Positions 954-60,863 of a DNA stretch of 64,000 bases are shown in pieces. The notes below the pieces were generated by a model. The model had not been told where the DNA came from and made no database searches. It saw only the letters and a program-made list of their open reading frames with translations. The stretch comes from Nitrospirota bacterium (lineage in GTDB: Bacteria; Nitrospirota; Thermodesulfovibrionia; Thermodesulfovibrionales; Dissulfurispiraceae). The stretch lies in assembly GCA_963710375.1 (NCBI GenBank), contig CAVPZX010000005.1, forward strand, positions 288,001-352,000, read 5' to 3'. Position 1 is the stretch's first letter. The number at the start of each line of letters is the position of its first letter. The position numbers and the translations under genes were made by a program.

Positions 954-2060
954 ATGTCTGCGCAAAAAGTGGAGCGTTATTTGCGGGATAACCCTCTCGC
1001 GGGTGACTTAGATCACGTCCTGACCCATACTGAAGGCCTTTGGGAAGACCTCAGGGGGAAACGCCTGTTTATTACGGGCGGCACAGGTTTTTTTGGTTCC
1101 TGGCTTCTGGAGAGTTTTGCCTGGGCGAATGAAAAGCTCGATCTTAAAGCGTCAGCCCTTGTTCTTACAAGGGATTACAATTCATTCAAACAGAACCTTC
1201 CGCATCTAGCCGCCAATCCGGCTATCCGGTTTCATACAGGAGATGTCAGGAATTTCAACTTTCCCGAAGGGGAATTCTCTCACATAATTCACGCCGCAGC
1301 CACATCGGCTGTTGCCACATACAACAACGAAGACCCACTGGTGAAGTTCGATACCGTTGCAGGGGGAACAAGGCATACCCTCGATTTTGCTGTTCTATGT
1401 CATGCCGGGAAGTTCCTTCTGACCAGTTCCGGGGCTGTCTACGGCAAGCAGCCATTCGACCTGACTCACATTCCAGAAGATTATTGCGGCGCACCCGATC
1501 CAGCGGACGCAAGCTCGGCGTGGGGAGAGGGCAAACGGGCGGCAGAATTCCTCTGTGCGTATTATTCGAAAAAATATGGCATCGAAACAAAGATTGCCCG
1601 TTGTTTTTCTTTTGTAGGCCCCTACCTGCCATTGGATATCCATTACGCCATTGGAAACTTCATAAGGGACGCATTGAATGGCGGACCTATCCGGGTCAAC
1701 GGCGATGGAACGCCTTATCGGTCCTATCTCTATGCTGCTGATTTGACCGTATGGCTATGGACGATCCTTTTTAAGGGCGAATCATGCCGGGCTTATAATG
1801 TCGGCTCGGAAGAAGAAATTACTATAGCGGAGTTGGCCAATACAGTGGCACGGAGCTTTCAGAAGCCTGTTGATGTGAAAATAGCTGAATTACCAGCCCC
1901 CAATAGGCCCCCCGAACGATACGTGCCTTCTACAAAACGGGCGCAAATGGACTTGGGAGTTAGACAGATCATTGATCTGGGAACAGCCATTGAGCGAACA
2001 GCGGCATTTGTCAACATGATAAGCAAAAAAAGACTGAACCACAGAGGCACAGAGACATAG
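954..2060 (+). CDS. NAD-dependent nucleotide-sugar epimerase/dehydratase (extended SDR)
   Basis: ITGGTGFFGSW Rossmann motif, TSSGAVYG, GDGTPYRSYLY, YNVGS. Confidence 0.9.
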   Translation: MSAQKVERYLRDNPLAGDLDHVLTHTEGLWEDLRGKRLFITGGTGFFGSWLLESFAWANEKLDLKASALVLTRDYNSFKQNLPHLAANPAIRFHTGDVRNFNFPEGEFSHIIHAAATSAVATYNNEDPLVKFDTVAGGTRHTLDFAVLCHAGKFLLTSSGAVYGKQPFDLTHIPEDYCGAPDPADASSAWGEGKRAAEFLCAYYSKKYGIETKIARCFSFVGPYLPLDIHYAIGNFIRDALNGGPIRVNGDGTPYRSYLYAADLTVWLWTILFKGESCRAYNVGSEEEITIAELANTVARSFQKPVDVKIAELPAPNRPPERYVPSTKRAQMDLGVRQIIDLGTAIERTAAFVNMISKKRLNHRGTET

Positions 2061-2140
2061 AGAAACAAATGAAATTTTTAAAAGAAAGCAGCAAATCTTT
2101 GACTAAAGTAGTACTCTGTGCCTCTGTGTTCTCTGTGATT
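2037..2140. repeat. Microsatellite hairpin, CACAGAG(A/G) 8-mer family
   Basis: Left arm AACCACAGAGGCACAGAGACATAGAG (2037-2062). Complementary right arm CTCTGTGCCTCTGTGTTCTCTGTGATT (2114-2140). Confidence 0.85.
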
Positions 2141-2145
2141 ATTTT

Positions 2146-2691
2146 TTGACGATGACAACCTTTATGGGAAACGGGGTGGATATTAAACAGGCTATCAGTG
2201 CTCTTGACTCCCTGATTGGGGACCCGTCGAACGGCCTGCCCGAAGATGTCTTTTTGTTTGCCAGCAGGATCACACCCATGGTTAATGTGGACCTCCTTAT
2301 CAGGAACGAGATGAACCAGACGCTGCTGACCTGGCGTGATGATGGATATTGGAAGGCGGGGTGGCATGTTCCTGGAGGTATCATTCGATACAAAGAAACG
2401 ATTGCTCAAAGGATCAAGGCTGTCGCAAAGACAGAGCTTGGTGCGGAGGCGGAGTTTCATCCAACCCCCCTGGCAATCAATGAAATAATTTTTCCGGACA
2501 GAAGAAATCGAGGGCACTTTATGTCATTACTTTATCATTGCTCTCTTATTACAGTTCCTGATGAAGGGCTGAAGTACAAGTCAGGTGTGCCTCTACCGGG
2601 TCAGTGGTTGTGGCATGATACATGTCCTGAAAACATTATTGCAGTGCATGAAATCTACAGGGGTTATATTGATAAAACAGGCAATAGGTGA
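2146..2691 (+). CDS. NUDIX hydrolase, GDP-mannose mannosyl hydrolase (Gmm/WcaH)-like
   Basis: TPMVNVDLLI...WHVPGGIIRYKET...ELG, a variant Nudix box typical of Gmm. The exact start is uncertain. Confidence 0.75.
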   Translation: MTMTTFMGNGVDIKQAISALDSLIGDPSNGLPEDVFLFASRITPMVNVDLLIRNEMNQTLLTWRDDGYWKAGWHVPGGIIRYKETIAQRIKAVAKTELGAEAEFHPTPLAINEIIFPDRRNRGHFMSLLYHCSLITVPDEGLKYKSGVPLPGQWLWHDTCPENIIAVHEIYRGYIDKTGNR

Positions 2692-2701
2692 TAGGCGACA
2701 G

Positions 2702-11280: not shown

Positions 11281-12457
11281 ATGAAAATATCTATTGATTT
11301 CAAAATATTATGGGATAGCTTCGATGAGTGTCCGGACTCAGATGTTGACCGCACAGAGCCTTTAAAATCATGCATTCATAGCGGCAATGCCGGAGATATT
11401 ATTTATTCCCTGCCGACGGTAAAAGAGTTGGGCGCCAGCCATTATGTGATAAATCTATATTCTCAACCAGAAGGCGGGTGGCGAAAAATGGATTATTCCA
11501 CTGCCAGGTCATTGGCCTCCCTTTTATTGGTACAGTGTTATATCAAGAGAGTAACGATTGTGTCCAGCAATCTCCCCCTTGAATCCGTTCAACCTAAAAA
11601 TTGAGAACATAGACTTTAATCTTGACAAGTTCCGCCTGCAGGATTGGCGCAAGCATCATTTGGCAATATGCCATTCTATGGCGTTTGGGCTTTACGTGAA
11701 TTTGTATAAAAAATGGATCGACTTAGGTGAGGATTTGCCGACCGGGGATTATGTTGTTGTTTCGTTTTCTCCCCGCTATCGTTCATTAACGAGGGAGTTC
11801 TGGATTGATGTCTTGTCCGGGCTTGACAAAGTCGTTGCAATTGGAGTCCCCCAGGAATTTTATTGTATGCAAGGCATTACCGCTGACTTTGTCACATGTT
11901 CAAACATGCTCGAAATGGCACGCATTATCGGTGGAAGCCGTCTGTTTATCGGCAATCCAGGCTTGACGTATGCCATTGCCGAAGGGCTAAAAGTGCCAAG
12001 AATTGTTGAAATGTCTGCAGAATTTCCTAATGCCTACCCCATAGGGCGGTCCGGATATCTGGCTCCGAATTCTGTTACAGAGGCAAGGAATTTAATCCAG
12101 AATCTATTATCTGATTCATCAAGGGACAACCTCCTTTACCGTAATGAAACCCTTGTACGCAATGTCCTGAAACTTGAAGAGGAACTAGGCAACAAGAATG
12201 ACCGTATCAGCGATCTTGAAGCTCAAATTGGCAATCTCGACGTAAACTCTTCTAACCTGGCAAGAGAACTTCGCCAAAATGATGAGACACTGCAAGCCAT
12301 CTACACATCCCATGGATGGAAACTCCTCTCGCTTTACTACCGGATACGGGATCGCGTACTCCCCGCAAACAGCATGAGGAGGAACGCAGTGAAATTCCTC
12401 TGGAATCTCCCTAAACATGACAGCAAATCGGCAAAAGACAAGGGAAGAAGTGAATAG
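11281..12457 (+). pseudogene. GT9/heptosyltransferase-like protein with C-terminal coiled coil; split by a +1 frameshift at about 11596-11600 (possibly a sequencing error)
   Basis: HSGNAGDIIYSLP in one frame. DFNLDKFR...FIGNPG...AIAEGLKVPRI, a coiled coil and SHGWKLL in the next. The junction is an A5 run. Confidence 0.6.
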
Positions 12458-15400
12458 GGCTGACTTGAAAGCTATCGCGTTTTATCTGCCCCAATTCCAT
12501 CCCATTCCCGAAAACGACCAATGGTGGGGCGAGGGTTTTACAGAGTGGATCAATGTTAAAAAAGCAAAGCCGCTCTTTGAAGGCCATTGGCAGCCCCGTA
12601 TTCCCGCTGACCTTGGATATTACGACCTCCGTGATCCCCAGGTGCGGCGTGAGCAGGCCAGGCTCGCTAAGACGTACGGTCTTCACGGGTTTTGCTATTA
12701 CTATTATTGGTTCAACGGCAAAAAACTCCTCGACTTTCCATTGCAAAAAGTCCTGGAAAGCGGAGAGCCTGATTTCCCATTTTGCATGTGCTATGCGAAT
12801 GAAAACTGGACCAGGGCATGGGATGGACTGGAACAGGATATATTAATAAAGCAGGAGCACAGTCCTGAGAATGATCTGCGTTTTATTCATGACATCATCC
12901 CTATCCTGAGGGACCCGCGGTATATTAAGGTAAATAATAAACCTTTGTTACTGGTTTACAGGGCCCACCTTTTCCCGGACCCGCGAAAAACTGCAGAGTT
13001 ATGGCGTGCAGCAGTAAAAAGTGCGGGGCTGGACGACCTGTATCTCTGCAAGTGTGAAGCTTTTGGAGATTATGTGCCTCCTGAGGAAATTGGGTTTGAC
13101 GCGAATGTGGAATTCCCTCCGCTTGGCGTAAGGGAGATTCCGAGGCTGAGCGAATATGAGGAGCGTATAAGGACATCGCAGCCTCTTGTCAGCGGTTACG
13201 TCTATGATTATGAAACTGCTGCGCACGTGATTATGAGCCGGAAGTGGCCCGATTACAGGCTGTTTAGGGGTATTATGCTCGGATGGGATAACACGGCACG
13301 GCGGCGCGAGGGACCAACTATTTACCATCATTTCTCACCCGAGGTTTATGAAGAATGGCTTGCCTTTATTTCCAAACAGTCGGTGCAACAACATCTGCAA
13401 GAAGAGAGGATCGTCTTTATCAATGCGTGGAACGAATGGGCTGAGGGGACCTACCTCGAACCTGATCAGAAATACGGATTGCGTTGTCTAGAAGCAACGA
13501 AGAGGGCAATAGAATCGGCAGAGATGATACAGCATAGGGGCGCCCGTATCGGGGATCTGAAAACGTACGGCGGTAAACTGGCAGAGGTCCTGTGGTATAG
13601 AGACGCCCGTATCGGGGATCTGGAGACGCACACCAATAACATGGCCGCTCATATTACTAATCTTGAGGCTGTGATAACGGACAAAGATATGCATATTACT
13701 CATCTTGAGGCTGCGATAACGGACAAAGATATGCATATAGGGAATCTTGAGGCTGCGATAACGGACAAAGATATGCATATAGGGAATCTTGAGGCTGCGA
13801 TAACGGACAAAGATTTGCATATAGGGCAACTTGCTGCATCTTTAGGCGAAAAAGAGGCTTATATAGAGCTTATCCATTCGGGGCACGGCTGGAAACTTCT
13901 AAACAAGTATTTCCGGATGCGCGATAAACTTTTGCCTGTCGGCTCTAAAAGAAGAACTGCGGCAAAGGTGCTTTTTAGGTTGCCATGGTTGATTTCGAAA
14001 GAGAATGCCGATAAAGCCATACAGTATGTCAAAAAATATGGTCTTAAAGCCTTTCTATTAAAGTCCAAGGAAAGAGTAATTATAGACGTTGATAATCCCT
14101 ATCAACAATGGATGGATAAGAATGAACCTAATCCGATTGAACTGAAAAAGCAGAGAGAAGTAAAATTTTCTTATGAACCAAAAATAAGTATAATTGTGCC
14201 GACCTACAATACACCGGAGAATCTTTTGAAAGATATGATCGAGTCGGTTCTGGATCAATCCTATTCTAATTGGGAGTTCTGTATTGCAGATGGGAGTATG
14301 CATGATTCACTCACAAAAGAGGTTTTAAAAGAATATTCGAGGAAAGATTCAAGAATAAAAGTGTCGTTTCTTTCTGAAAATAAAGGCATAGCAGGAAATT
14401 CTAATGAGGCTTTGTCTTTAGCAAGCGGTGATTATATTGCCTTCCTGGACCACGATGATGAACTGAGTCCCGATGCCTTGTACGAAGTGGTTTCGCTCCT
14501 TAACGAGAAGCCTGAAACTGAATTCATTTACTCGGATGAGGACAAGATGAATGAAAAGGGAGAAAGATATGAGCCCCACTTCAAACCTGATTGGTCGCCG
14601 GACACATTCCGGAGCTATAACTATATTTGTCACTTCACAGTAATCAGGAAAGCGCTGGTGGATAAAGGTGGAGGTTTTCGTCCGGGGTTCGATGGCTCGC
14701 AGGATTATGATCTGTTCCTCAGGGCTACGGAAAGAACAAAGCATATAGAACATATACCAAAAATTCTGTATCACTGGCGAAGTGTAGGGGGTTCGGCAGC
14801 AGGCGATGTTACAGCGAAGACCTATGCTTTTGAAAGCGCGAAAAAGGCCCTGAGGGAGCACTTGGAGAGGGTGGGTCTGCACGGAGAAGTGCAGGACGGG
14901 CCTTTCCTGAGGTCCTACCGGACGACATACAGAATCGAGGGGAGTCCGTTGGTATCCATTATCATTCCGACCCGCGACAAAGTGGATCTGCTGAAGACAT
15001 GCCTTGAATCCGTTGCGCAGCTTACATCTTACCCGTCATACGAAATAGTAGTGATTGACAACCAGAGCGAGAGTCATGAGACGTTCCGCTATTACGATGA
15101 GTTGAAGGAAGCTGGACGAGTGCGGCTGCTGCAGTACAGCGAGCCGTTCAATTTTGCGGCGATCAACAACTATGCTGTAAAAGAAGCGAAAGGCGACCAT
15201 CTGCTCTTCTTGAACAACGATACCGAGGTTATCACTCCTGACTGGATTGAACAAATGCTTATGTACTCACTCAGGAAAGATATCGGGGCCGTTGGTGCTA
15301 AACTGTATTATCCCGATGGCTCAATCCAGCATGCAGGCGTAATTGTTGGTCTTGGCGGGGTAGCGGGACATTCACATAAGTATTTTAGCAGAGCATCCGC

Positions 15401-15770
15401 AGGTTATTTCAGCAGGCTGGAGATTGTACAAAACCTGAGTGCAGTGACGGCGGCGTGCATTATGGTCCGCCGGGATGTATTTGATGAAGCAGGCGGATTC
15501 GATGAAAGCTTTTCCCATGCCTTTAACGATGTTGATTTATGCTTGAAAATCAGACAAAAGGGGTATCTGATAGTTTTCACGCCCTATGCGGAGCTTTATC
15601 ACCACGAATCAAAAACAAGAGGGTATGAGGATTCGGCTGAAAAGCAGGAACGCTTTAAAGGGGAGATCGCACTTTTCAGACAGAAGTGGAGACATTTTCT
15701 GGAACAGGGCGACCCATACTACAATCCTAACCTGACCCTCGATAAAGAAGATTTCTCGATAAAGCTATAA
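12450..15770 (+). CDS. Multidomain protein: GH99-like/WbsX domain, coiled coil, two GT2 domains
   Basis: IAFYLPQFHPIPENDQWWGEGFTEW...NAWNEWAEG, then heptad repeats, then ISIIVPTYN..LDHDD and VSIIIPTRD..LNNDTE. Probable GTG start at 12450 (ORF open from 12417). Confidence 0.92.
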   Translation: MNRADLKAIAFYLPQFHPIPENDQWWGEGFTEWINVKKAKPLFEGHWQPRIPADLGYYDLRDPQVRREQARLAKTYGLHGFCYYYYWFNGKKLLDFPLQKVLESGEPDFPFCMCYANENWTRAWDGLEQDILIKQEHSPENDLRFIHDIIPILRDPRYIKVNNKPLLLVYRAHLFPDPRKTAELWRAAVKSAGLDDLYLCKCEAFGDYVPPEEIGFDANVEFPPLGVREIPRLSEYEERIRTSQPLVSGYVYDYETAAHVIMSRKWPDYRLFRGIMLGWDNTARRREGPTIYHHFSPEVYEEWLAFISKQSVQQHLQEERIVFINAWNEWAEGTYLEPDQKYGLRCLEATKRAIESAEMIQHRGARIGDLKTYGGKLAEVLWYRDARIGDLETHTNNMAAHITNLEAVITDKDMHITHLEAAITDKDMHIGNLEAAITDKDMHIGNLEAAITDKDLHIGQLAASLGEKEAYIELIHSGHGWKLLNKYFRMRDKLLPVGSKRRTAAKVLFRLPWLISKENADKAIQYVKKYGLKAFLLKSKERVIIDVDNPYQQWMDKNEPNPIELKKQREVKFSYEPKISIIVPTYNTPENLLKDMIESVLDQSYSNWEFCIADGSMHDSLTKEVLKEYSRKDSRIKVSFLSENKGIAGNSNEALSLASGDYIAFLDHDDELSPDALYEVVSLLNEKPETEFIYSDEDKMNEKGERYEPHFKPDWSPDTFRSYNYICHFTVIRKALVDKGGGFRPGFDGSQDYDLFLRATERTKHIEHIPKILYHWRSVGGSAAGDVTAKTYAFESAKKALREHLERVGLHGEVQDGPFLRSYRTTYRIEGSPLVSIIIPTRDKVDLLKTCLESVAQLTSYPSYEIVVIDNQSESHETFRYYDELKEAGRVRLLQYSEPFNFAAINNYAVKEAKGDHLLFLNNDTEVITPDWIEQMLMYSLRKDIGAVGAKLYYPDGSIQHAGVIVGLGGVAGHSHKYFSRASAGYFSRLEIVQNLSAVTAACIMVRRDVFDEAGGFDESFSHAFNDVDLCLKIRQKGYLIVFTPYAELYHHESKTRGYEDSAEKQERFKGEIALFRQKWRHFLEQGDPYYNPNLTLDKEDFSIKL
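13518..13631 (+). repeat. Imperfect 63-bp-period coding repeat (21 aa)
   Basis: CGCCCGTATCGGGGATCTG occurs twice, 63 bp apart (ARIGDL). Confidence 0.8.
13650..13826 (+). repeat. 42-bp tandem repeat, about 4.2 copies (14-aa di-heptad HIxNLEAAITDKDM)
   Basis: Units start at 13650, 13692, 13734, 13776, with a partial unit at 13818. Confidence 0.95.
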
Positions 15771-20355: not shown

Positions 20356-20646
20356 TCATGCATGTCTTTTTTTACTGAAGGTTATTTTTCCTTCGTTGAA
20401 TTTGTGAATAAGCATAGAAATCAGGGATTGATATGGTATCCCCTCTTCAATTGCTTTAGCACGAATTTTCTTTAAATCCCGCTCAGTCATTCGAATATTA
20501 ATCCGCATTTGTTTGTTTAGGCTATAGCGGGCATATGCTTCATATCTCTTTTTTTCTTTCTTGTTAAGGTCGGAGGTCCATTCATTTTTTTCAAGCGATT
20601 CAGCTAATTCTCTTTCGTCTGTATCCAAATAAACTGTTCTCTTCAT
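20356..20646 (-). CDS. BrnA/CopG-like antitoxin
   Basis: RINIRMTERDL..IR.KA..EGIPYQSLI RHH motif. Overlaps the toxin stop (ATGA). Confidence 0.85.
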   Translation of the reverse strand: MKRTVYLDTDERELAESLEKNEWTSDLNKKEKKRYEAYARYSLNKQMRINIRMTERDLKKIRAKAIEEGIPYQSLISMLIHKFNEGKITFSKKRHA

Positions 20647-20921
20647 TTTTTGCCTCCCAAATATTTCTTTGTTGCCTTGCTGTTAGGTATTATTGTTTTC
20701 AAAAATATGCTTTCGTCATCCTCAATATACTGTACAGAATAGACATAATCTTCAATCAGTACCAGAAAAACCTTTTGATTCGGATATTTCGCCTGGTTGG
20801 TATGTTTAACCCGGTCAAGTAAATCGCCTGATGCGATTGCCAGTTCCACCTGCTCAAATGATACATTCCGCTCTTTTTTGAGTAAATCATTTTTCTCATT
20901 ATTCCAATCGAAATATTTCAT
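20643..20921 (-). CDS. BrnT-like toxin
   Basis: FDWNNEKNDLLKKERNVSFE...YPNQ...FLKTIIP. Confidence 0.85.
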   Translation of the reverse strand: MKYFDWNNEKNDLLKKERNVSFEQVELAIASGDLLDRVKHTNQAKYPNQKVFLVLIEDYVYSVQYIEDDESIFLKTIIPNSKATKKYLGGKK

Positions 20922-27608: not shown

Positions 27609-28515
27609 CGTTATTATTCTCACTCTCAACGCGGGTGAAAGATTGCGTTCCCTCCTGGAGGCCCTGCTGCCGCAAACGGTGCCGTTGGAGCTAATGGTGG
27701 TCGATTCCTCTTCAACAGACAGTACACTTTCTATTGCTAGAGCTTACGGGGCAAAAGTCGCAACAGTGCAGAGGAGTGATTTCGATCATGGCGCTACCCG
27801 AAATTTCGGTATCCTCCAGACTTCCGGAGACATTGTGGTATTCCTAACGCAGGATGTGGTTCCTGTGGGTAGAGATACGATGGAGAGGCTTATCGCGCCT
27901 TTTTATGCCGATGAACTGGTAGGATGTGTTTATGGAAGGCAGCTGCCTTCCCCCGAAGCCACGGTTTTTGCCGCACACTCACGGATTTTCAATTATGGCC
28001 CTACTTCACTGGTAAAGTCCCGGGAGAACGGCGAAAGGGGAATAAAGGTCCCTTTTCTCTCTAATTCCTTTGCCGCATACAGGAGAAAAGCACTTGAAGA
28101 AATTGGTCTTTTTAAAGAAGGCCTTATCTCAACAGAGGACACATACGCAGGAGCCAGGATGCTCATGGCCGGTTACAGGATCGCCTACGCATCGGACGCT
28201 GCGGTATACCATTCACACAACTATACTCTCATGGAAGAATTCCGGCGGTACTTCGATATAGGGGTCTTTCACCGGAGGGAAAAATGGATTATTGAAACCT
28301 TTGGAAGGGCGGAGGACGAGGGGAGCAGATTTCTACTGTCTGAGTTGCGGTATATAGCCAGGGAGGCTAAATATGGTCTTCTGCCCGAATTTTTGGCCCG
28401 GAATAGTTTAAAATACCTTGGCTTCTCCCTTGGACGGCAGTATGAAAAACTGCCTTTGAAAATAATTAATAAAATTGAGCAAGAACAAAAATTATTGGGA
28501 AAAAAAACAGGTTAA
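27601..28515 (+). CDS. GT2 rhamnosyltransferase (RfbN/WbaN-like); C-terminus probably +1 shifted near 28471
   Basis: DSSSTD, FDHGATRN, FLTQD, YGRQLP, SNSFAAYR, HSHNY, RYFDIG. The expected LS...YW tail (LSKNKNYW) lies in the adjacent frame. Confidence 0.85.
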   Translation: MVSVIILTLNAGERLRSLLEALLPQTVPLELMVVDSSSTDSTLSIARAYGAKVATVQRSDFDHGATRNFGILQTSGDIVVFLTQDVVPVGRDTMERLIAPFYADELVGCVYGRQLPSPEATVFAAHSRIFNYGPTSLVKSRENGERGIKVPFLSNSFAAYRRKALEEIGLFKEGLISTEDTYAGARMLMAGYRIAYASDAAVYHSHNYTLMEEFRRYFDIGVFHRREKWIIETFGRAEDEGSRFLLSELRYIAREAKYGLLPEFLARNSLKYLGFSLGRQYEKLPLKIINKIEQEQKLLGKKTG

Positions 28516-32254: not shown

Positions 32255-32265
32255 TCTACCATGTC

Positions 32266-35625: not shown

Positions 35626-35759
35626 AAACGTGAAACGTGAAAGGTGAATAGTGAATAGTGAACGGCTCAAGGCAAAAAACAAACCAAAAAATCTTTAGCT
35701 TTTAACTATTCACCATTCACGTTTCACGTTTTTAACCATTCACCATTCACCTTTCACTA
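35626..35759. repeat. Microsatellite hairpin, GTGAA(A/T)N heptamer family, with a doubled right arm
   Basis: AACGTGAAACGTGAAAGGTGAATAGTGAATAGTGAA, then two TTCAC-based arms at 35702-35731 and 35733-35759. Confidence 0.9.
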
Positions 35760-35819
35760 TTTCCTGTTTTCCTTACTACAAACAACGATGGTATGTGATA
35801 AAATAGAGCACAGGAATGT

Positions 35820-37359: not shown

Positions 37360-38786
37360 TACCATCTGCGATCTTCAGGGAGTATGATATAAGGGGTGTG
37401 GCAGGTAAAGACCTTGCCGGAGATACCGCGGTCCTTATCGGAAAGGCGTTCAGCTCACTTGTAAAATCTTTTATTCCCAAAGCAAAACAGGTGAGCGTAG
37501 GAAGAGATGTAAGGCTGAGTTCTGAAGAGCTTGCTGCCGGGCTTATCAAAGGAATCGTGTCTTCCGGCATCGATGTATATGACATCGGGGTCTGCCCTAC
37601 ACCGGTCCAGTATTTCTCACTCCATCATCTGGATCTGGATGGCGGTATAATGGTTACCGGCAGCCATAATCCGCCGGAATATAACGGCTTCAAGATCAGT
37701 ATAGGGAAAGATGCCATTTATGGCGGAAACATTCAAAAGCTGGAAGAGATAATTAAAAGGCAGGATTGGACAATTTCGGAAGAAGACGGCAGAGTTAAGC
37801 ACTGTAATATAATTGACCCATATAAAGAATATATGCTGAAACAGTTTTCATATCTTAATAATGCACGGTTCAGGAGGGTCAGGGTAGTCATAGATGCCGG
37901 AAACGGCACTGCAGGCGCTATTGTGCCCGAAATCCTGGCCGGAATGGGCTGTGAGGTTGTACCGCTTTATTGTGAACCTGACGGAAGGTTCCCCAACCAT
38001 CACCCTGATCCTACGGTGGTTGAATACATGCAGGACTTGATTATGGAAACGAGGAGGTCAGGAGCGGATATCGGCGTTGGTTATGATGGTGATGCCGACA
38101 GGATTGGAGTAGTTGACAGAGAAGGGACTATTATATGGGGAGATCAGATATTGATCATCCTGAGCAAGGAAGTGTTGAAGGAAAACCCGGGGGCCAAGGT
38201 TATCGGCGATGTAAAGTGCTCGCAGGCGATGTTTGATGAGGTGAAGAAACACGGCGGCATTCCCATTATGTGGAAGACCGGGCACTCTTTAATAAAACAA
38301 AAGATGAAGGAAGAGGGGGCCCTTATCGCAGGAGAATTCAGCGGACATATTTTTATTGCTCATAACTATTTCGGCTACGATGACGCACTCTACACCACCT
38401 TCAGGATTATAGAGATCATGAAGAAAACAGGAAAGGACATAAAAGGGCTTGTTTCTGATGTAGCCAGGATGTCATACACTCCTGAAATCAGGCGCGAATG
38501 CCCGGAAGACATGAAAAAAGAGGTTGTGGGCAATGTGGTGTCCCGCCTCCTTGCCTATTCAAAAGACGGTAATGCTCCTTATAGGATTATAGACGTCAAT
38601 ACGCTTGACGGGATCAGGATTTTATTTGAAAAAGGGTGGGGATTGATACGGACCAGCAACACGCAGCCTGTAATCGTCATGAGAGCCGAGGCAGATGATG
38701 AGGAACATTTAAACCAGTACACAAGTTTTTTGGAAAATGTATTAGAGCAGGCAAAGGTAGAGGTAGAGGTAAAGGTAAAAGGCTAG
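37356..38786 (+). CDS. algC: Phosphomannomutase/phosphoglucomutase
   Basis: FREYDIRG, TGSHNP, DGDADR, GEFSGH, RTSNT. Confidence 0.93.
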   Translation: MIPSAIFREYDIRGVAGKDLAGDTAVLIGKAFSSLVKSFIPKAKQVSVGRDVRLSSEELAAGLIKGIVSSGIDVYDIGVCPTPVQYFSLHHLDLDGGIMVTGSHNPPEYNGFKISIGKDAIYGGNIQKLEEIIKRQDWTISEEDGRVKHCNIIDPYKEYMLKQFSYLNNARFRRVRVVIDAGNGTAGAIVPEILAGMGCEVVPLYCEPDGRFPNHHPDPTVVEYMQDLIMETRRSGADIGVGYDGDADRIGVVDREGTIIWGDQILIILSKEVLKENPGAKVIGDVKCSQAMFDEVKKHGGIPIMWKTGHSLIKQKMKEEGALIAGEFSGHIFIAHNYFGYDDALYTTFRIIEIMKKTGKDIKGLVSDVARMSYTPEIRRECPEDMKKEVVGNVVSRLLAYSKDGNAPYRIIDVNTLDGIRILFEKGWGLIRTSNTQPVIVMRAEADDEEHLNQYTSFLENVLEQAKVEVEVKVKG

Positions 38787-38845
38787 CAATGTATAAAATA
38801 ATAATTATGTTATCAACCTTGATCTTAACCTTAGCCTTAACCTGC
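38747..38845. repeat. Hexamer microsatellite hairpin overlapping the PMM C-terminus
   Basis: GCAGGCAAAGGTAGAGGTAGAGGTAAAGGTAAA (encodes AKVEVEVKVK), then TCAACCTTGATCTTAACCTTAGCCTTAACCTGC. Confidence 0.8.
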
Positions 38846-38859: not shown

Positions 38860-40251
38860 ATGAAAGCGCTTATTTTAGCAGGAGGAGGCGGGACCAGGCT
38901 TTGGCCTTTGTCCAGGAGGAACTACCCCAAGCAGTTTCTAAAGATAAACAGTGATAAATCGCTCCTTCAACAGACCGCTGAAAGACTTCTTAAAGTGATG
39001 ACCCTGGATGACCTTGTTGTTGTGACGAACGCCAAATATAAGTTTTATGTGAAATCCGACCTCCCTGACATAAAACATTTGATATTTGAGCCTGCGGGCA
39101 GAAATACGGCTCCTGCCACGGCTCTCAGCATTAAATACTTCCTGGAAAAGCTCGGATGCCACGAGGATGAAGTCATATTAATGTGCCCTTCGGACCATGT
39201 GATACGGCCCGATGAAAAATTTGCAGAATACATTGAACTCGCCGAAACAATAGCCAGAAAAGGCTATATAGTAACATTCGGCGTAAAGCCTGACAGGCCT
39301 GAACCGGGTTACGGCTATATAAAAGCAGGCAAAGGCCAAAGCGCAAAGAGCAAAGGCAAACACATAACTTTCTTTGAAGTGGAGAAATTTGTAGAGAAAC
39401 CTGACATGGAAACAGCCCGGAGATATGTGAATGACGGCTCCTATTATTGGAATTCGGGGATGTTTGCCTTCAGCATCAAAACGATGCTCGATGAAATGGG
39501 CAGGCACTCGCCTGAAATGAAAGGACTGCATACTCAGGGATTCGATGATATGCTGTCCGGCTTTGAGCGTATGCCCGACATCTCTATAGATTATGCGGTC
39601 ATGGAGAAATCAGACAGGGTGGTTATTGTGCCCCTTGACCTATATTGGAATGACATAGGCTCCTGGGATTCGCTTTACGACGTGCTTGATAAAGATGAAG
39701 AGAGGAACGTAACGCAGGGCGATGTCCTTGTAATAGATACAAAGGGAACTCTTGTTTTGGGGAATAAGCGTCAGATTACCACCATAGGGCTTAATGATTG
39801 TCTTATTGTTGAAACAGATGACGCAATACTAGTGGCGAAAAAAGGATCGGCGGAGAAAGTAAAAGAGGCGGTAAGCAGGCTGCATAAGGCGTCGAGGAGC
39901 GAAGTGGAAGACCACGTTACAACCTACAGGCCATGGGGCAGCTATACTGTCCTTGAGGATGGCCTGCGGTACAAGATAAAAAGGATAGTAGTGAATCCGA
40001 ATGAAAAATTAAGCCTACAGTTGCACTACCACCGGTCTGAGCATTGGGTTGTGGTTAAAGGCACTGCCAAAGTATTGGTCGGAGACAAGGAGATGCATAT
40101 CCATGAAAATGAATCGGCATATGTCCCGAAATCGACCATGCACAGGCTTGAAAATCCCGGCAAAGTCCCTCTCGAAATTATAGAGGTCCAGAACGGTGAA
40201 TATGTGGGAGAAGATGATATTATAAGGATGGAAGACAAGTACGACAGATAA
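38860..40251 (+). CDS. manC: Mannose-1-phosphate guanylyltransferase/mannose-6-phosphate isomerase
   Basis: ILAGGGGTRLWPLSR..PKQF, RNTAPA, SIDYAVME, C-terminal cupin RPWG..HRSEHW. Confidence 0.96.
   Translation: MKALILAGGGGTRLWPLSRRNYPKQFLKINSDKSLLQQTAERLLKVMTLDDLVVVTNAKYKFYVKSDLPDIKHLIFEPAGRNTAPATALSIKYFLEKLGCHEDEVILMCPSDHVIRPDEKFAEYIELAETIARKGYIVTFGVKPDRPEPGYGYIKAGKGQSAKSKGKHITFFEVEKFVEKPDMETARRYVNDGSYYWNSGMFAFSIKTMLDEMGRHSPEMKGLHTQGFDDMLSGFERMPDISIDYAVMEKSDRVVIVPLDLYWNDIGSWDSLYDVLDKDEERNVTQGDVLVIDTKGTLVLGNKRQITTIGLNDCLIVETDDAILVAKKGSAEKVKEAVSRLHKASRSEVEDHVTTYRPWGSYTVLEDGLRYKIKRIVVNPNEKLSLQLHYHRSEHWVVVKGTAKVLVGDKEMHIHENESAYVPKSTMHRLENPGKVPLEIIEVQNGEYVGEDDIIRMEDKYDR
39328..39360 (+). repeat. 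In-frame heptamer tract in manC (single arm)
   Basis: GGCAAAG GCCAAAG CGCAAAG AGCAAAG GCAAA encodes GKGQSAKSKGK after YGYIK. Confidence 0.75.
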
Positions 40252-40257: not shown

Positions 40258-40337
40258 AAAACCGAAGGTGCGAAGATGTGAAGATGCGAAGATGAGCAAA
40301 ATCCCTCCCAACTTCTCAACTTCTCAACTTCGGTTTT
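40258..40337. repeat. Microsatellite hairpin, GAAG(A/T)TGN family
   Basis: AAAACCGAAGGTGCGAAGATGTGAAGATGCGAAGATG, then CAACTTCTCAACTTCTCAACTTCGGTTTT. Confidence 0.88.
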
Positions 40338-48119: not shown

Positions 48120-49004
48120 ATGAAAGGTATCATTCTGGCAGGCGGAAGCGGCACGAGACTTTACCCGGTGACTTTGTCGGTGTGCAAGCAGCTTCTGCCT
48201 GTTTACGACAAGCCTCTGATTTACTATCCGCTTTCGGTGCTTATGCTTGCAGGCATAAGGGAAATACTGATCATCTCAACACCCCAGGATCTGCCGAGAT
48301 TCAGGGAAATATTTAATACCGGCTCACAATTGGGATTGAGTTTTTCATATAAGGAGCAGTCCCGGCCGAATGGCATTGCCGAGGCTTTTTTGCTGGGAGA
48401 AGAGTTTATCGGCAGCGATGACGTATGCCTTATATTGGGAGATAATATCTTTCATGGCCACGGTTTTACCGATTTGCTGAATAAGGCAGTGAGTGATATA
48501 ACGGCCCGGAGGGGTGCGACCGTATTTGGTTATTATGTCAACGATCCCGAGCGGTACGGAGTAATCGAATGTGACAAAAAAAACAAGGTCCTTTCAATTG
48601 AAGAAAAGCCCAAAATGCCCAAATCTAATTATGCTGTAACAGGGCTCTATTTTTATGATAACAATGTTACTGAGATTTCGAGGAAGATTAAGCCTTCCCG
48701 GCGGGGAGAACTGGAGATAACAGATGTTAACAAGGAGTATCTGAAAGAAGGAAACCTGAGGGTCGAGTTCCTCGGAAGGGGTTACGCTTGGCTTGATACA
48801 GGCACCCACGAAAGCCTTCTTGAAGCAGGCGAATTTATCTCCACCATAGAAAAACGTCAGGGATTGAAGATAGCCTGTATAGAGGAAATTGCTTACCAGT
48901 TGGGCTATATAGATGGCGATCAGCTTTTAAAGCTCGCTAAACCTCTTAAAAAGAACGGATACGGGCAGTATCTTTTAAAAATATTGAAAGAAGAGAGGCT
49001 ATAG
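48120..49004 (+). CDS. rmlA: Glucose-1-phosphate thymidylyltransferase
   Basis: [42 protein letters not shown]. Confidence 0.97.
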
Positions 49005-49079
49005 GCAATGGGCTATAGGCAATGGGCAAAAACTAAAAAAACTTCGTCCCTATTGCCTATAGCCTATTGCCCATAGCCT
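48996..49079. repeat. Microsatellite hairpin, (A/G)GGC(A/T)AT heptamer family
   Basis: AGGCTAT AGGCAAT GGGCTAT AGGCAAT GGGC, then CCCTATTGCCTATAGCCTATTGCCCATAGCCT. Confidence 0.9.
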
Positions 49080-50481: not shown

Positions 50482-50558
50482 AGAAGTTGAGAAGTTGAGA
50501 AGTTGAGAAGTTGTGCTATTTTTTTCGCACCTTCTCAATTTCGCAGCTTCTCACCTTC
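50482..50558. repeat. Microsatellite hairpin, GAAGTTGA family
   Basis: (AGAAGTTG)4, then CACCTTCTCAATTTCGCAGCTTCTCACCTTC. Confidence 0.85.
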
Positions 50559-50578
50559 GTGCTCTCAGGGGGTAGTTC

Positions 50579-51547
50579 ATGAAGAGGCTTTTGGTTACTG
50601 GAGGAGCGGGGTTTATCGGGAGTGAATTTGTAAGGCAGGCAGTAGGGAGGGGATATGCTGTCAGTGTTGTTGATGCCCTCAGCTATGCCGGTGATATGTC
50701 ACGAATAGAAAAAGTTGAAAAGAAGCTCACTTTTTACAAGGCAGACATAGGGAATCTGGACTTTATGCGGTATATTTTTGAGACCGAAAGACCTGATGCC
50801 GTTATCCACTGGGCAGCGGAAAGTCATGTGGACAGGAGCATCCAGGATGCAACGCCATTCCTGGGAACGAATATAAAGGGTACCCATAGTTTGCTCGAGG
50901 CGTCACGGTATTGCAATGTTAAACGTTTCATAAATATATCGACGGATGAGGTGTACGGAGAGCTTGCAGCAGAGGGCCATTTTTATGAAACATCTCCGCT
51001 GAACCCAAACTCGCCTTATTCCGTGAGCAAGGCTTCCGCCGATATGCTGGGAAGGGCATATTTCAGAACATATGGCTTACCGGTAATAACGGTCAGGCCT
51101 TCAAATAATTACGGCCCGTGGCAATATCCTGAAAAACTTATTCCTGTGGTCATACTGAAAGCGATGCGCAATGAGAAAATCCCTGTTTATGGTAAGGGAG
51201 AGAATATAAGGGAATGGCTGTTTGTTTCTGACTGCGCCGGTGCAGTCTTTTCTGTTTTGGAGCATGGTAAGCCAGGTGATATTTATAATGTTGGAAGCGG
51301 TGAGGAAAAGAGGAATATAGATGTAGTCAGGGAAATCCTGCATTTGATGGGGAGACCGGAAAAGATGATTGAATTTGTAGAAGACAGGCCGGGCCATGAC
51401 TACCGCTATTCTCTGGATTCGACAAAGATCTGGAAGCAGCCTGGATTGAAGAAGCTGGTCTCTTTTGAAAAGGGACTCAAGGCAACAGTGAAGTGGTATA
51501 AAGACAACATTTCCTGGGTGGAACAAAAATCAGGCAATAGGCAATAG
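50579..51547 (+). CDS. rmlB: dTDP-glucose 4,6-dehydratase
   Basis: GGAGFIGS, AAESHVDRSI, STDEVYG, PYSVSKA, NNYGP.Q.PEKLIP, DRPGHD.RY. Confidence 0.96.
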   Translation: MKRLLVTGGAGFIGSEFVRQAVGRGYAVSVVDALSYAGDMSRIEKVEKKLTFYKADIGNLDFMRYIFETERPDAVIHWAAESHVDRSIQDATPFLGTNIKGTHSLLEASRYCNVKRFINISTDEVYGELAAEGHFYETSPLNPNSPYSVSKASADMLGRAYFRTYGLPVITVRPSNNYGPWQYPEKLIPVVILKAMRNEKIPVYGKGENIREWLFVSDCAGAVFSVLEHGKPGDIYNVGSGEEKRNIDVVREILHLMGRPEKMIEFVEDRPGHDYRYSLDSTKIWKQPGLKKLVSFEKGLKATVKWYKDNISWVEQKSGNRQ

Positions 51548-51608
51548 GCTCTAGGCTATGGGTAAAAGAAAGAGAATTTTTTGTTTTTTCCTATTTCCTA
51601 TTGCCTAT
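51532..51608. repeat. Microsatellite hairpin, AGGCAAT family
   Basis: AGGCAAT AGGCAAT AGGCTCT AGGCTAT GGG, then CCTATTTCCTATTGCCTAT. Confidence 0.82.
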
Positions 51609-51618: not shown

Positions 51619-53073
51619 ATGCGGTTAGGCAATAGAAATAAGAAATTAGCATGCGTTGTTGCACTTATCACCATTGATATTCTGGCATTCTATGGGGCGC
51701 TTTCTTCAGCTTTTTTTACCAGGAAACTGCTTAATATATTTTTTGCCGGATTAATAACTTTTAAGTTCTCATTGGGTTACTATTTCCGGTTCTGGTGGAT
51801 GCCGCTGATATTTATTGTTGCTATTGCATATGAAAAACTGTATATAAAAAGGCTCTCCCTCTGGGATGAAACGAGAGCAATGATAAAGGCAGTTACCGCC
51901 TCGGTAATTGTAATTTTTGCGATTGTATCTCTGGGAAAGTTGAGCGATCTCATTTCCCGTCTCGTCATAGTTTTTTTATTGCTTTATGGCCTGGTCATGT
52001 TCCCTACTTTCAGATTATTGGGTAAGAAAATCCTGTCAGCGATCGGTCTCTGGCGGGAATACGTCATAATCATAGGTGCGGGCAAAGCAGGTATCGAAAC
52101 TGCACAGGGAATAGTGCGGGAAGCCCATCTAGGCTATAAGATTATCGGATTCCTGGATGATGCTGATGAAAAAAAGGACATGGAGATACGCATTGATAAT
52201 ACGACATATAAAGTTTTTGGGAAGGCCAGGCATTTCAGGAAATTTGTGAATTTATTGCATATATCGACCGTTATTATTGCAATCCCTTCGCTTTCTCTTC
52301 AGAAGATGTCTGAGCTTACCAGTGCTGTCCAGAGATACACAAAAAGCGTTCTTCTTGTCCCCAACCTTAAAGGCATAGCTCTGCTTAATACCGAGTTATA
52401 TCATCTTTTCATGCAACAGCTCTTTCTGTTGAAGACAAACAACAACTTAAAATCATTATTTAACAGGTTTGTAAAGAGGAGTTTTGATCTTGCAGTGGCA
52501 GTGCTTTTTTCCCCAATCCTTTTTCTGCTGGTGGGGGTTATCGGAATCCTGGTTAAAATTGACTCTCGAGGCCCTGTATTCTATTCGCATCTCCGTCTCG
52601 GTCAGAAGGGTAAGCTCATAAGGGTTTATAAAATAAGGACTATGTACCTGGACGCCACGGAAAAGCTGAAGGAATTTCTGGAAAAGGACCAATCAGCAAA
52701 AGAAGAGTGGGGGACTTTTTTTAAATTGAAGAATGATCCGAGGGTGACCAGGATTGGAAAATGGTTGAGGGAGACCTCTCTCGACGAACTGCCCCAGTTC
52801 ATGAATATAATTAAGGGTGACATGAGCCTGGTAGGCCCGCGGCCTGTACTACAGGAAGAAATAGATTATTACTATAAGGAGTATGCCGACTATTATTTTA
52901 TGGTCAAGCCCGGGATGACCGGTCTATGGCAGACAAGCGGAAGGAATATCATAAACTATGATTATAGAGTCAAGCTCGATACGTGGTATGTATTGAACTG
53001 GTCATTATGGTTTGATATCGTCATATTAGTTAAAACAATCAGGGTTGTACTCAACAAAGAAGGTGCTTATTAA
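51619..53073 (+). CDS. wbaP: WbaP-type undecaprenyl-phosphate sugar phosphotransferase, copy 2
   Basis: N-terminal TMs, KRSFD, KIRTM, DPRVTRIG, SLDELPQ, PGMTGLWQ, EGAY. Confidence 0.92.
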   Translation: MRLGNRNKKLACVVALITIDILAFYGALSSAFFTRKLLNIFFAGLITFKFSLGYYFRFWWMPLIFIVAIAYEKLYIKRLSLWDETRAMIKAVTASVIVIFAIVSLGKLSDLISRLVIVFLLLYGLVMFPTFRLLGKKILSAIGLWREYVIIIGAGKAGIETAQGIVREAHLGYKIIGFLDDADEKKDMEIRIDNTTYKVFGKARHFRKFVNLLHISTVIIAIPSLSLQKMSELTSAVQRYTKSVLLVPNLKGIALLNTELYHLFMQQLFLLKTNNNLKSLFNRFVKRSFDLAVAVLFSPILFLLVGVIGILVKIDSRGPVFYSHLRLGQKGKLIRVYKIRTMYLDATEKLKEFLEKDQSAKEEWGTFFKLKNDPRVTRIGKWLRETSLDELPQFMNIIKGDMSLVGPRPVLQEEIDYYYKEYADYYFMVKPGMTGLWQTSGRNIINYDYRVKLDTWYVLNWSLWFDIVILVKTIRVVLNKEGAY

Positions 53074-53077: not shown

Positions 53078-53259
53078 TCCAATTCAAACAGCAGATGACT
53101 CTCTTTCGCTACGCTCCGTTTTGACAGTTCTATGACTCGTCTCGCTACAGTCGCAAAATTCCCTTCGGTCAGTTTCGCTCCTGTTTTACGCTCACTCGCC
53201 AAGAACTGTTTCCAAAACTCCGCTAATGCTTTAGAGATTCATCTACTGTCTGAATTGCA
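53078..53259 (-). mobile_element. 182-bp MITE-like element, family A copy 2 (inverted)
   Basis: Reverse complement of 26365-26546, with about 5 mismatches. Confidence 0.88.
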
Positions 53260-53280
53260 GATATTTTCTGTGCAGCATAA

Positions 53281-53421: not shown

Positions 53422-53499
53422 ACAGGTTAAGGCTGAGGTTAAGGTTAAGCCAAAGCCAAAGAAAATATTCCTTTAAGACGTTTCTTAACCTTAACCTGT
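53422..53499. repeat. GGTTAA-family microsatellite hairpin between the two tRNAs
   Basis: ACAGGTTAAGGCTGAGGTTAAGGTTAAG, then CTTAACCTTAACCTGT. Confidence 0.88.
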
Positions 53500-53590: not shown

Positions 53591-53775
53591 TTACAATTCA
53601 GACAGTACAGGGTTGTTTTTCTGCAGTCGAGCGCCTGGGTTATCTGCAGTGGGCGAGTAACGCCGAGCCCACATATTCAACTGGAACAAGATTGATGTTC
53701 TGTATATACAGCAGGGCTGGCACAGTGGGCTAATCGCTCGCAAAGAAAAATTACCCTGTACTGTCTGAATTGTAA
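53591..53775. mobile_element. 185-bp MITE-like element with family A ends and a different interior
   Basis: 23-bp terminal inverted repeat TTACAATTCAGACAGTACAGGGT; shares the core CAATTCAGACAGTA. Confidence 0.82.
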
Positions 53776-58591: not shown

Positions 58592-58700
58592 GTTCTGAAT
58601 GATTTAAATCATACCCCTTTTTAATCTATTAATTATACTATATCAGTAATGCCGGTCGTGTGACTTTAATTACGAAAAAGCGGCAGGGAGGAGCATCACA

Positions 58701-59936
58701 GTGAAATATGTCAGGCTCGGGATAGTGTTTGCTTTTATTTTTCTCATTGGCAGCGCGGCATCTGCCAGGACGCAAAGGACCGATTGTGTTGAGTGCCACC
58801 GGAAGGTAACCCCCGGTATTGTGCAACAGCACCTTCAGGGCAAGATGGCAAAGGCAGGAGTTGATTGCTCTGCTTGCCACGGCTCAGGGCACAAAAAAAT
58901 GGATGATGCAAAACTTGCCCAAATGCCAACCCCCGATACCTGCACAGGATGCCACAAGAAACAGGCTGACCAGTTTAAGGACAGCAAACATAATCTCGCC
59001 TGGGTTGCCTCGGTCGCTTTGCCAATGATAACGCACCAGCCTACTGCCCGCCCCGCCTTGGCGGGCGGGACAGACGGAGGATACAAGGGATGTTCAAACT
59101 GCCACGGGATTGGGGTAAAATCAGATGCCGAGCGGGCGCAATTCCGTTATGGGAATGCCCAGTGCGATTACTGCCATACCAGGCATTCATTTAATAAATC
59201 GGAAGCGCAGGACCCCAGGGCCTGCAAGACATGTCATATGGGATTTGACCACCCCCAGTGGGAAATGTGGTCTGGCACCAAACACGGTACGATCTGGCAG
59301 ATTGAAGGCAAGTGGAGCAAAAGGGCGCCTACCTGTCAAACCTGCCATATGCAGGACGGAACCCACAATGTTACGACCTCATGGGGCTTTCTGGCATTGC
59401 GGCTGCCTGAGGACGACAAAGAATGGATGAAAGACAGGATGACTATTCTTCAGTCTCTCGGAGTCCTGGATGATAAGGGCAATCCTGCTGCCAGGTTCGA
59501 CATAGTGAAAGCATGCAGAGTGATGCGGCTTACCAAAGAGGAGTTTAACGAACAAATAGTCAAAATGACCGCTGTCTGCGCAAAATGCCATGGCGCCACT
59601 TACGCTAAACGCCAGCTCGAAGCAGCGGACAAGGTAATAAAGGATGCCGACAGGATCATGTCAGAAGCTATCAGCGTGGTACAAGGTTTATACAAAGACG
59701 GCATACTGGAGAAGCCGGCAGGCTGGACCTTCACCCCTGATCTGCTTCAATCCTATGAAGCAAAGAACGCGGTGGAGCAGGACCTTTATGACATGTTCTT
59801 TGAATACAGGGTGAGGGCTTTCCAGGGTGCATTTCATATGAATCCCGACTATATGTACTGGTACGGTTGGGCGCCCATGAAAGAGACCTTGCAGAAGATT
59901 AAGGATGAAGCGGCAGAGTTGAGGGCGCGCGAATGA
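58701..59936 (+). CDS. Octaheme cytochrome c, HAO-family-like
   Basis: Signal peptide and eight CxxCH motifs (CVECH, CSACH, CTGCH, CSNCH, CDYCH, CKTCH, CQTCH, CAKCH); CHMGFDHPQWE, HMNPDY. Confidence 0.88.
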   Translation: MKYVRLGIVFAFIFLIGSAASARTQRTDCVECHRKVTPGIVQQHLQGKMAKAGVDCSACHGSGHKKMDDAKLAQMPTPDTCTGCHKKQADQFKDSKHNLAWVASVALPMITHQPTARPALAGGTDGGYKGCSNCHGIGVKSDAERAQFRYGNAQCDYCHTRHSFNKSEAQDPRACKTCHMGFDHPQWEMWSGTKHGTIWQIEGKWSKRAPTCQTCHMQDGTHNVTTSWGFLALRLPEDDKEWMKDRMTILQSLGVLDDKGNPAARFDIVKACRVMRLTKEEFNEQIVKMTAVCAKCHGATYAKRQLEAADKVIKDADRIMSEAISVVQGLYKDGILEKPAGWTFTPDLLQSYEAKNAVEQDLYDMFFEYRVRAFQGAFHMNPDYMYWYGWAPMKETLQKIKDEAAELRARE

Positions 59937-60104
59937 ATAACTTGTGCGTTCAGGCGCTCAAATTCAGGTCAGATTTGGCTGATCTGACTGAGCAAAAACC
60001 GCAGGCGTAGCATAGCTACGTTGAGGATTTTGCGACTGAGGATCGGGCAAAGATGGCCTAAATCTGAGATGCATCAATGTGCAAGTTATTCATTCGCGTG
60101 CCCT
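59922..60104. mobile_element. 183-bp MITE-like element, family C
   Basis: 23-bp terminal inverted repeat AGGGC(G/A)CGCGAATGAATAACTTG; central CGTAGC-ATA-GCTACG hairpin. Confidence 0.8.
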
Positions 60105-60825
60105 ATTGCGCGCTGAACAACTCAACCTCTCCGCTCTCAATGTGGTATATGCCGGCAACAACCTTAAGGTCTCCTGACTCCATAAGTTTTTTAACTACAG
60201 GGCTTTTCCTAAGCAGGTATTTCTGCTGAAGCAGCACATTTTCCCTGATAGCATTATTAAGAATATCCTCTTTAGTGCCTCCTCTCACGCTCGCTTTTTT
60301 TACAGCAGGCAGTATTTTCCTGAGTATCATAGCGATATTATCTCCGGTTTTCTCTTTTGCCTCGATAGCAGCTGATACTGCACCGCATTTATCGTGTCCC
60401 AGCAGAATGAGAAGGGGCGCATGTAAGTGTTCCGCAGCATATTCGATGCTGCCCACTAAAATTGGATCAAGCACATTGCCTGCGGACCGGACAACAAACA
60501 AAGCACCCAAGCCCTGGTCAAAAATAATTTCAGGGGGTACCCGTGAGTCTGAACAGGTAACGACTATTGCAGAAGGATGCTGTGCCTTTGAGAGTTCTTT
60601 CCTTCTTGTATCACTGGTGTCTTTTGTCGCCAGGCTCCCTGAAATGAACCGCTTGTTACCTTCCAGGAGTTTACTTAAGGCTTCATCCCCTTTTTTAGAG
60701 CCCGTTTCAGGACCCGCAAAGGAAAGACTGAAAGGAGACAGCAGGCAGTAAGAAGTAAGAAGTAAGCAGCAAAAAATCGAAAACAGAACGTTTTTTCTCA
60801 AAATAGTATCAACTCCACACTTCAT
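60103..60825 (-). CDS. Beta-class carbonic anhydrase, probably exported
   Basis: GNKRF, CSDSRV, RSAGN, GHDKCGAV; hydrophobic N-terminus. Confidence 0.92.
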   Translation of the reverse strand: MKCGVDTILRKNVLFSIFCCLLLTSYCLLSPFSLSFAGPETGSKKGDEALSKLLEGNKRFISGSLATKDTSDTRRKELSKAQHPSAIVVTCSDSRVPPEIIFDQGLGALFVVRSAGNVLDPILVGSIEYAAEHLHAPLLILLGHDKCGAVSAAIEAKEKTGDNIAMILRKILPAVKKASVRGGTKEDILNNAIRENVLLQQKYLLRKSPVVKKLMESGDLKVVAGIYHIESGEVELFSAQ

Positions 60826-60863
60826 CGTTTGTCCTCCTCACTGCCTACTGTTTACTGCTTACT
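60740..60863. repeat. Microsatellite hairpin, AGTAAG(A/C) heptamer family
   Basis: AGCAGGC AGTAAGA AGTAAGA AGTAAGC (inside the carbonic anhydrase signal region), then TCACTGCCTACTGTTTACTGCTTACT. Confidence 0.8.

Follow-up and report, generated by a model that had tools for sequence, protein, structure and literature searches.

Convergent tandem-repeat pairs at gene junctions of a Nitrospirota genome as probable derivatives of repeat-armed gene cassettes

Why do about 15 gene junctions in a single stretch of a Nitrospirota genome carry hairpins of one layout, built from interchangeable repeat units? The stretch, hereafter the window, spans 64,000 nt (positions 288001-352000 of contig C5) of genome G000, which comprises 3.19 Mb in nine contigs; its relatives are numbered G001, G002 and so on. 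A sequence-only reading of the window had listed 15 such loci and proposed a common generating or mobilising mechanism rather than independent slippage, with a four-helix-bundle gene cassette as the possible gene-carrying form. Indeed, all 15 loci (15/15) consist, at their reported positions, of a G- or purine-rich tandem arm, an A/T-rich spacer and a complementary arm. We argue here, with a probability of roughly 70%, that these pairs are non-autonomous derivatives of repeat-armed cassettes, which would originate in the loss of the cargo gene by deletion, be copied and exchanged at tight gene junctions through recombination at their arms, and finally be lost by collapse. The earlier interpretation as a whole is partly supported.

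The pairs extend well beyond the window. With a generic detector we found 225 of them in the 3.19 Mb genome, as opposed to 1, 0, 0 and 0 in four controls; this detector picked up only 11 of the window loci and paired the locus at 51532 wrongly. A family-specific detector, whose regular-expression patterns were derived from the arms of G000 itself, returned 217 inward-facing and 5 outward-facing pairs in 11 families, and 0 in three Markov-5 controls. The genome-wide repeat search that had been proposed thus gave a real signal, of 217-225 pairs where controls had 0-1, and the observation is confirmed as genuine and genome-wide. The number of unit families, first put at about six, is at least 11. 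The statement that the purine-rich arm always comes first was right about fixed polarity, but the correct rule concerns G: in the generic census the G-skewed arm leads in 225/225 pairs and the purine-rich arm in 221/225. Since the arm order is identical on both strands, the arms face inward.

The pair, moreover, behaves as one object. Among 192 G-arms with at least three units, 121 had a C-arm of equal strength no more than 200 nt away, and in 119 of these 121 (each arm with at least three units) both arms belonged to the same family, with two mixed cases, where 20% agreement would be expected of independent arms. The pair itself is therefore the unit, which bears out the proposal of a common mechanism. 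It also largely refutes the notion that each arm arose by its own slippage, either under a gene-end rule (G-rich past a stop codon, C-rich ahead of a start codon) or as part of a terminator, with pairing as a by-product. That notion has some appeal, because it predicts the inward polarity at every type of junction and matches a strand rule described in the text of Rehm et al. (PMC4692102); in addition, of the 146 loci between co-directional genes, 86% have a left arm that begins at most 40 nt from the upstream stop. The rule is inverted at the cargo genes described below, however, where the G-rich arm precedes the start and the C-rich arm trails the stop, and the controls yield next to no pairs. 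We therefore regard independent slippage as very improbable.

Terminators were considered as well. With gene boundaries taken from mechanical calls of open reading frames (ORFs), 204 of the 217 loci are intergenic and 13 lie inside ORFs. Their junctions (146 co-directional, 32 convergent, 26 divergent) follow the same distribution as all junctions in the genome (2164, 436 and 432, respectively), so that convergent junctions, at 32/204 versus 436/3032, are not enriched as the terminator version would have it. A run of at least 6 T in the 10 nt past the 3' arm occurs at 45 of the 146 co-directional loci, and the earlier statement that the hairpins lack U-tails was accordingly too strong. Both the background-like orientation and the record of T tails led us to reject intrinsic termination. 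A scan for consensus terminators between 27500 and 42000 found none at the elements, a weak test in that only loops of 3-8 nt were allowed.

What, then, do the arms belong to? One pair in the window encloses a gene (ORF 30207-30572) whose product is homologous to XCC0516 (PDB 2GSC, five chains; E 1.6e-16). G000 carries six TIGR02436 genes of this four-helix-bundle type above cut-off, plus one weak match without arms. Each of the six is enclosed by arms, in six different unit families, and all six cassettes are flanked by ORFs and share their strand with both neighbours. Their layouts are arm-gene-arm, hairpin-gene-arm and arm-gene-hairpin, often with an extra internal arm, and gene-less forms outnumber gene-filled ones by about 35 to 1. 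To relate units to proteins we gathered 50 stretches, fetched or from G000 itself, which gave 44 genes (one stretch yielded two; 7 had no hit, including two of the six in G000), and 43 intact proteins entered a tree. Each supported clade had one unit type, with units labelled by eye. The gene-less pairs resemble the arms around the six genes and are likely the gene-less, non-autonomous version of these cassettes, with a separate unit for each cargo clade.

The CACAGAG family departs from this scheme in its partner. In relatives, CACAGAG arms enclose GxxExxY genes (PF13366, nuclease fold) at 3 of the 7 loci viewed; of the other four, three are flanked by different arms and the last by weak CACAGAG-like ones. 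No GxxExxY gene was found in G000. The suggestion of a four-helix-bundle cassette as gene-carrying form holds in so far as all six genes are armed and filled and empty alleles exist, but it has to be amended twice: every unit family has a cargo clade of its own, and for CACAGAG the partner is a GxxExxY gene rather than a four-helix-bundle gene.

Repeat abundance also follows the cargo across genomes, bearing in mind that closely related genomes are not independent of one another. AGGTTA arrays were present in 13 of 41 genomes, namely in 13 of the 27 with a TIGR02436 hit and in 0 of the 14 without one. GTGA arrays numbered 66-129 in the four congeners with a cassette armed by GTGA units; the remaining six had 0-10. 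For CACAGAG the pattern control tells us nothing, since the pattern, once reversed, still overlaps the same arrays.

The elements of the window are as follows ("empty" denotes a pair without a cargo gene; strand is given where assigned):

2039-2137: empty element, CACAGAG(A/G) unit with arms of the GxxExxY type; overlaps the stop codon of an NAD-dependent epimerase gene
28509-28580: empty element, AGGTTA unit; its loop is a reverse match to the loop at 30050
30050-30171: complete AGGTTA element within the left arm of the filled cassette
30207-30572, + strand: four-helix-bundle gene, 121 aa, TIGR02436 / PF05635; cargo of the AGGTTA family
30588-30833: right arm of TTAACC units with a 65/77-nt tandem amplification; extends into the rmuC 5' end with arm units in frame
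32165-32256: empty element, GAAG(A/T)TG(A/T) unit; convergent rmuC/trpD junction
33309-33390: empty element, CACAGAG unit; trpD/trpG
33993-34076: empty element, GCAAAG(C/G) unit; trpG/trpE
34913-34991: GGC(A/T)AA(A/G) element at the C-terminus of ORF 34932-35579, in frame in part
35626-35761: empty element, GTGAANN unit; divergent junction, in the largest cluster of shared loops
38749-38843: empty AGGT(A/T)(A/G) element; phosphomannomutase/manC
39327-39360, + strand: solo GGCAAAG arm, in frame within manC
40263-40332: empty GAAGATG(A/C/T) element; manC/ugd
48996-49079: empty GGC(A/T)AT(A/G) element; rmlA/rmlC
50482-50559: empty GAAGTTGA element; rmlD/rmlB
51532-51608: empty GGCAATA element; rmlB/wbaP
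53424-53497: empty AGGTTA element; between tRNA-Gly and tRNA-Cys
60745-60873: empty AGTAAG(A/C) element; carbonic anhydrase/rfaE-II junction

The window loci sit between protein or tRNA genes, and an Rfam search of the window returned two tRNAs only. WbaP-like phosphotransferase genes occur twice, at 28772-30046 and 51619-53073, with an element of a different family ahead of each.

Comparison of orthologous junctions, which the sequence-only reading had proposed as filled against empty sites, revealed bare, empty, other-unit and gene-filled alleles among congeners. The phosphomannomutase/manC junction (38749) is gene-filled in G002 and G007, empty in G000, G001, G003 and G005, and bare in G009; within its loop, G000 has preserved 13 nt that exactly match the start region of the gene in G002, and G005 has preserved 16 nt that exactly match the stop codon and trailer of that same gene. 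At manC/ugd (40263), G007 is filled with AGGTTA arms, four genomes carry gene-less pairs in three different units (those in G002, G003 and G005 differ from that of G000), and G009 is again bare. The rmuC/trpD junction (32165) has the same unit once, other units five times and an unrelated repeat once in seven relatives. The units are thus interchangeable at a single junction, as had been proposed. Other units also occupy the 28509 site in G002, G003 and G005 (with a remnant only in G009), the 50482 site in G002, G003 and G006, the 53424 site in G003, and the 60745 site in G001, G005 and G006. The element is absent at trpD/trpG (33309) from G005, G007 and G010, where G002 has a solo right arm; at trpG/trpE (33993) from G002, G005, G009 and G010; at 48996 from G005; at 50482 from G005, G007 and X10; and at 51532 from G007. 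Where alleles are bare, a short native spacer stands in the place of the element.

Closer strains show the same turnover. The 28509 site is occupied by 184 different letters in a close strain (X7, X8). A 7-kb contig of run X10 (~92% alike) has three adjacent sites collapsed, absent and replaced: at 48996 a 12-bp palindrome, collapsed at a 4-nt direct repeat, and at 51532 a run of 99 other letters. The 4-nt repeat reads as collapse and not as target duplication. On a larger scale we compared G000 with 1.24 Mb of G005, which amounts to roughly one third of the G005 genome, with flanks 87.5% identical. Among the 217 sites, 70 had syntenic flanks and were classified by regular expression as 17 same, 10 different, 11 solo and 32 none, although by eye some of the "solo" class are missed same-family pairs and some of the "none" class hold unlisted units or repetitive extragenic palindromic (REP)-like elements. 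Such REP-like palindromic elements are frequently found within loops or replacing elements (G005 loci L099-L158; G001 L008).

In some cases the arms have become coding. At 30596-30833 the 5' end of rmuC has been multiplied about 3.4 times, bounded by TTAACC arms, and the hydrophobic N-terminus of the rmuC product is partly encoded by arm units in G000, G002 and G005; at the 30050 site, G002 and G005 have the left arm alone. The spot of the solo arm in manC differs in length between relatives. A second in-frame solo arm lies at G000:C5:208593 in a CDP-glucose dehydratase-like gene (assigned by inspection).

The loops between the arms provide a separate line of evidence. Forty-eight of 201 loops form 14 clusters of shared sequence above the null maximum, and loop pairs scoring above that maximum are same-family in 59 cases versus cross-family in 3. 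The largest cluster joins 14 unrelated loci in both orientations, 12 of them GTGAANN and including the window locus at 35630. Shared loops of this kind speak against pure scars, that is, against the idea that every site once held a full cassette whose gene was lost and that empties are immobile. Such scars would fit with the traces of gene start and stop left at 38749 and with the predominance of unique loops, and the internal extra arm of filled cassettes would allow the gene to drop out. However, about 220 separate cassette visits would be required, cargo remnants are rare, and unrelated loci would not be expected to have loops in common in both orientations. In our judgement scars as a complete account are improbable.

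The spelling of the units follows the resident cassette. Orthologous GTGA pairs are identical at 322 of 327 core positions, a figure inflated by the selection of pairs, and at 156 of 247 variable bases, the latter near the level of four-fold sites (70.8%). The change has a direction: in every one of 15 orthologous GTGA pairs, the G005 copy has the larger number of units ending in C (p = 6e-5), and the GTGA cassette itself has C-ending units in 10/11 cases in G005 and 0/6 in G000, with the GC content of both genomes alike. A shift in 15/15 pairs toward the cassette spelling indicates that the dispersed copies track the cassette of their own genome, either by overwriting or by selection for binding.

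A further possibility is that the elements act as RNA, as long stems that RNase III cleaves or that stabilise operon mRNA, like an intervening sequence (IVS) moved out of rRNA and selected for pairing. Stable stems are indeed predicted: for 13 of the 15 window loci we folded the presumed transcribed strand, and all 13 gave z-scores of -2.8 to -9.4 against dinucleotide shuffles. There are precedents, in that the Coxiella IVS holds a PF05635 family member between 28-bp inverted repeats that are cut by RNase III (PMC4990558), and most of the Xanthomonas repeats are described as transcribed (PMC4692102). In the two largest families, arms within a locus also resemble each other slightly more than arms of permuted pairs do (0.905 versus 0.888 and 0.900 versus 0.877), a small excess, found in two of five families, which had been overlooked in an analysis of the inner-end register. 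In those two families, however, the excess is equal with and without register, and the three smaller of the five families tested showed none. Nor is there a G-U bias on the transcribed strand (G-U 165 versus A-C 143, p = 0.23; 57 versus 52 in the best register). Moreover, 26 of the 204 intergenic loci lie between divergent genes, equal to background, and the sites turn over rapidly. Selection for RNA pairing is thus not supported, the hairpin structure may be incidental, and we consider an RNA-level role unlikely.

If the pairs are derivatives of cassettes, as we favour, a plausible course of events would be the following. Empties would originate when the cargo gene is deleted, and would then be copied into tight gene junctions, replacing the native spacer without target duplication. 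Other families would overwrite them, probably when the arms recombine through homology or microhomology, and elements would be lost by collapse at short direct repeats. The nuclease would be supplied by the GxxExxY partners, whereas a host function would cut and join for the four-helix-bundle families. For the cargo protein itself, we give even odds to the idea that the pentamer binds 3-5 units of its own repeat, through a fixed core and free spacer bases, and so maintains the arms.

Several observations weigh against derivation from cassettes. Co-inheritance alone could explain the linkage of unit and clade, and the four genomes rich in GTGA arrays are closely related to each other. Arrays also occur without their cargo (AGGTTA in G001 and G003; CACAGAG in G000, G001 and G007). 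As many as 153 of the 201 loops are unique, and in one case two identical loops have their flanks in common too, which makes this a larger duplication. Only 3 of 71 AGGTTA loops contain a gene-start motif (p = 0.10), and a match to the interior of a cassette exists for only 12 of 272 loops, where the null gives 5; neither figure is significant, and the idea of universal gene-start remnants in loops was dropped. Four of those 12 matches, which pair G005 loops with the trailer of the filled cassette in G005 itself, do favour derivation from cassettes. Inspection by eye of 15 + 9 alignments, with flanks ~88% identical, revealed no target duplication. Finally, a catalytic partner is missing among the candidates sought: the 98.8% complete genome has no PF00078 (reverse transcriptase) match, and the sole Y1 transposase has no arms in the ~600 nt examined on each side, so that a REP-associated tyrosine transposase (RAYT) is not supported as partner. 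A diversity-generating retroelement or other retro mechanism was likewise rejected, as the Avd model scored 20 bits against a cut-off of 80 in addition to the lack of a PF00078 match. PF05635 has been tied to Avd through structure (PMC10053308).

Among known systems, the closest match in sequence layout is that of Xanthomonas. Rehm et al. 2015 (PMC4692102) describe convergent pairs of GGGAATC heptamers, 70 cases in Xanthomonas campestris pv. campestris, with no cargo gene. Like the pairs seen here, these have about four G-rich units, converge, and lie near or overlap stop codons. We expected the Xanthomonas homologue to lie in an armed setting, and this held in 2/2 Xanthomonadaceae loci, with a Streptomyces match left out: an XCC0516-type gene sits between GGGAAT(C/G) arms in Xanthomonas sp. 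3075 and in Luteimonas. The Xanthomonas pairs are therefore probably one family of the same system. They differ in having a single unit, as opposed to at least 11 here, and in being reported as stable in that paper, in contrast to the turnover described above; its main text does not contain the terms "four helix", "xcc0516" or "intervening". Since most units in G000 have GG or a single G and no GGG tracts, a G-quadruplex interpretation is not transferable.

REP doublets forming hairpins (REPINs) and their RAYTs, as presented by Bertels and Rainey 2011 (PMC3337134), are the closest in population biology. They share with the present pairs the inverted doublets, variable spacer and extragenic dispersal, together with several groups per genome, non-autonomous spread and strong differences among relatives, yet differ in two defining features. 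A REP is a short imperfect palindrome (PMC3337134), whereas the arms here are non-palindromic tandem 6-8-mers; and a RAYT is a tyrosine transposase adjoining the repeats, whereas the linked gene here encodes a four-helix-bundle or PD-(D/E)XK protein inside the arms. The Coxiella 23S rRNA IVS with its S23p ORF (PMC4990558), which is sporadic and horizontally acquired, likewise has a PF05635 ORF within stem-forming inverted repeats, a likeness limited to the filled forms here. It is cut by RNase III and lies within an rRNA gene, whereas our elements lie between protein or tRNA genes and have arms of tandem units. The TAACTGA repeats of Beggiatoaceae (MacGregor 2015, PMC4679880) are intergenic 7-mers in 2-6 copies with a fixed orientation to starts, and a repeat-binding protein was suggested there as a mobile element. 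In contrast to our pairs, nearly all are solo direct sets, with one inverted; "four helix" and "intervening" are absent from the main text of that paper. Our literature search found no paper linking arms to cassettes, within a coverage that excluded subscription papers and supplements, so that novelty in print is unproven.

MITEs (miniature inverted-repeat transposable elements) are short and gene-less, with inverted ends, and some are multi-copy. Terminal inverted repeats are present here too, and 48 of the 201 loops cluster, but no target duplication was visible by eye, no cognate transposase was found, and the interiors are mostly unique. Three elements of ~180 nt with inverted ends in the window (53080-53260, 53595-53775 and 59922-60105) are MITE-like and separate from the repeat-armed pairs. 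Their interiors differ from each other, they have many matches in G001-G006 at ~80-97% identity, and they are missing from runs X7-X10.

Abundant intergenic repeats of 6-9 nt and the PF05635 family are two long-standing puzzles. With each repeat family tied to one protein clade, both become testable by binding, including that of XCC0516 to GGGAATC, and the coexistence of at least 11 families and six cargo genes in one genome makes a good specificity panel. The data also reveal that operon junctions are quickly remodelled, with spacers and ribosome-binding sites replaced and in-frame residues gained (manC, rmuC). Rather more speculatively, and with the odds somewhat against it, the system might be widespread and transposase-free: pentamers and GxxExxY nucleases would read their own 6-9-nt repeat, spread gene-less arms to hundreds of junctions and respell older copies, which would serve as landing pads for cargo. 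If true, this would account for the heptamer repeats that have long been noted in Xanthomonas, cyanobacteria and Beggiatoaceae, and would amount to a protein-to-repeat code.

Three further features of the window deserve mention. A multiheme cytochrome c is encoded at 58701-59936, with a match to the hydrazine dehydrogenase model below cut-off. Two small minus-strand ORFs at 20356-20921, of which one weakly matches the BrnA antitoxin (E 6e-4), form a possible toxin-antitoxin pair. Lastly, a 42-nt tandem repeat of 4.2 copies (13659-13833) lies within the 1117-aa ORF 12417-15770.

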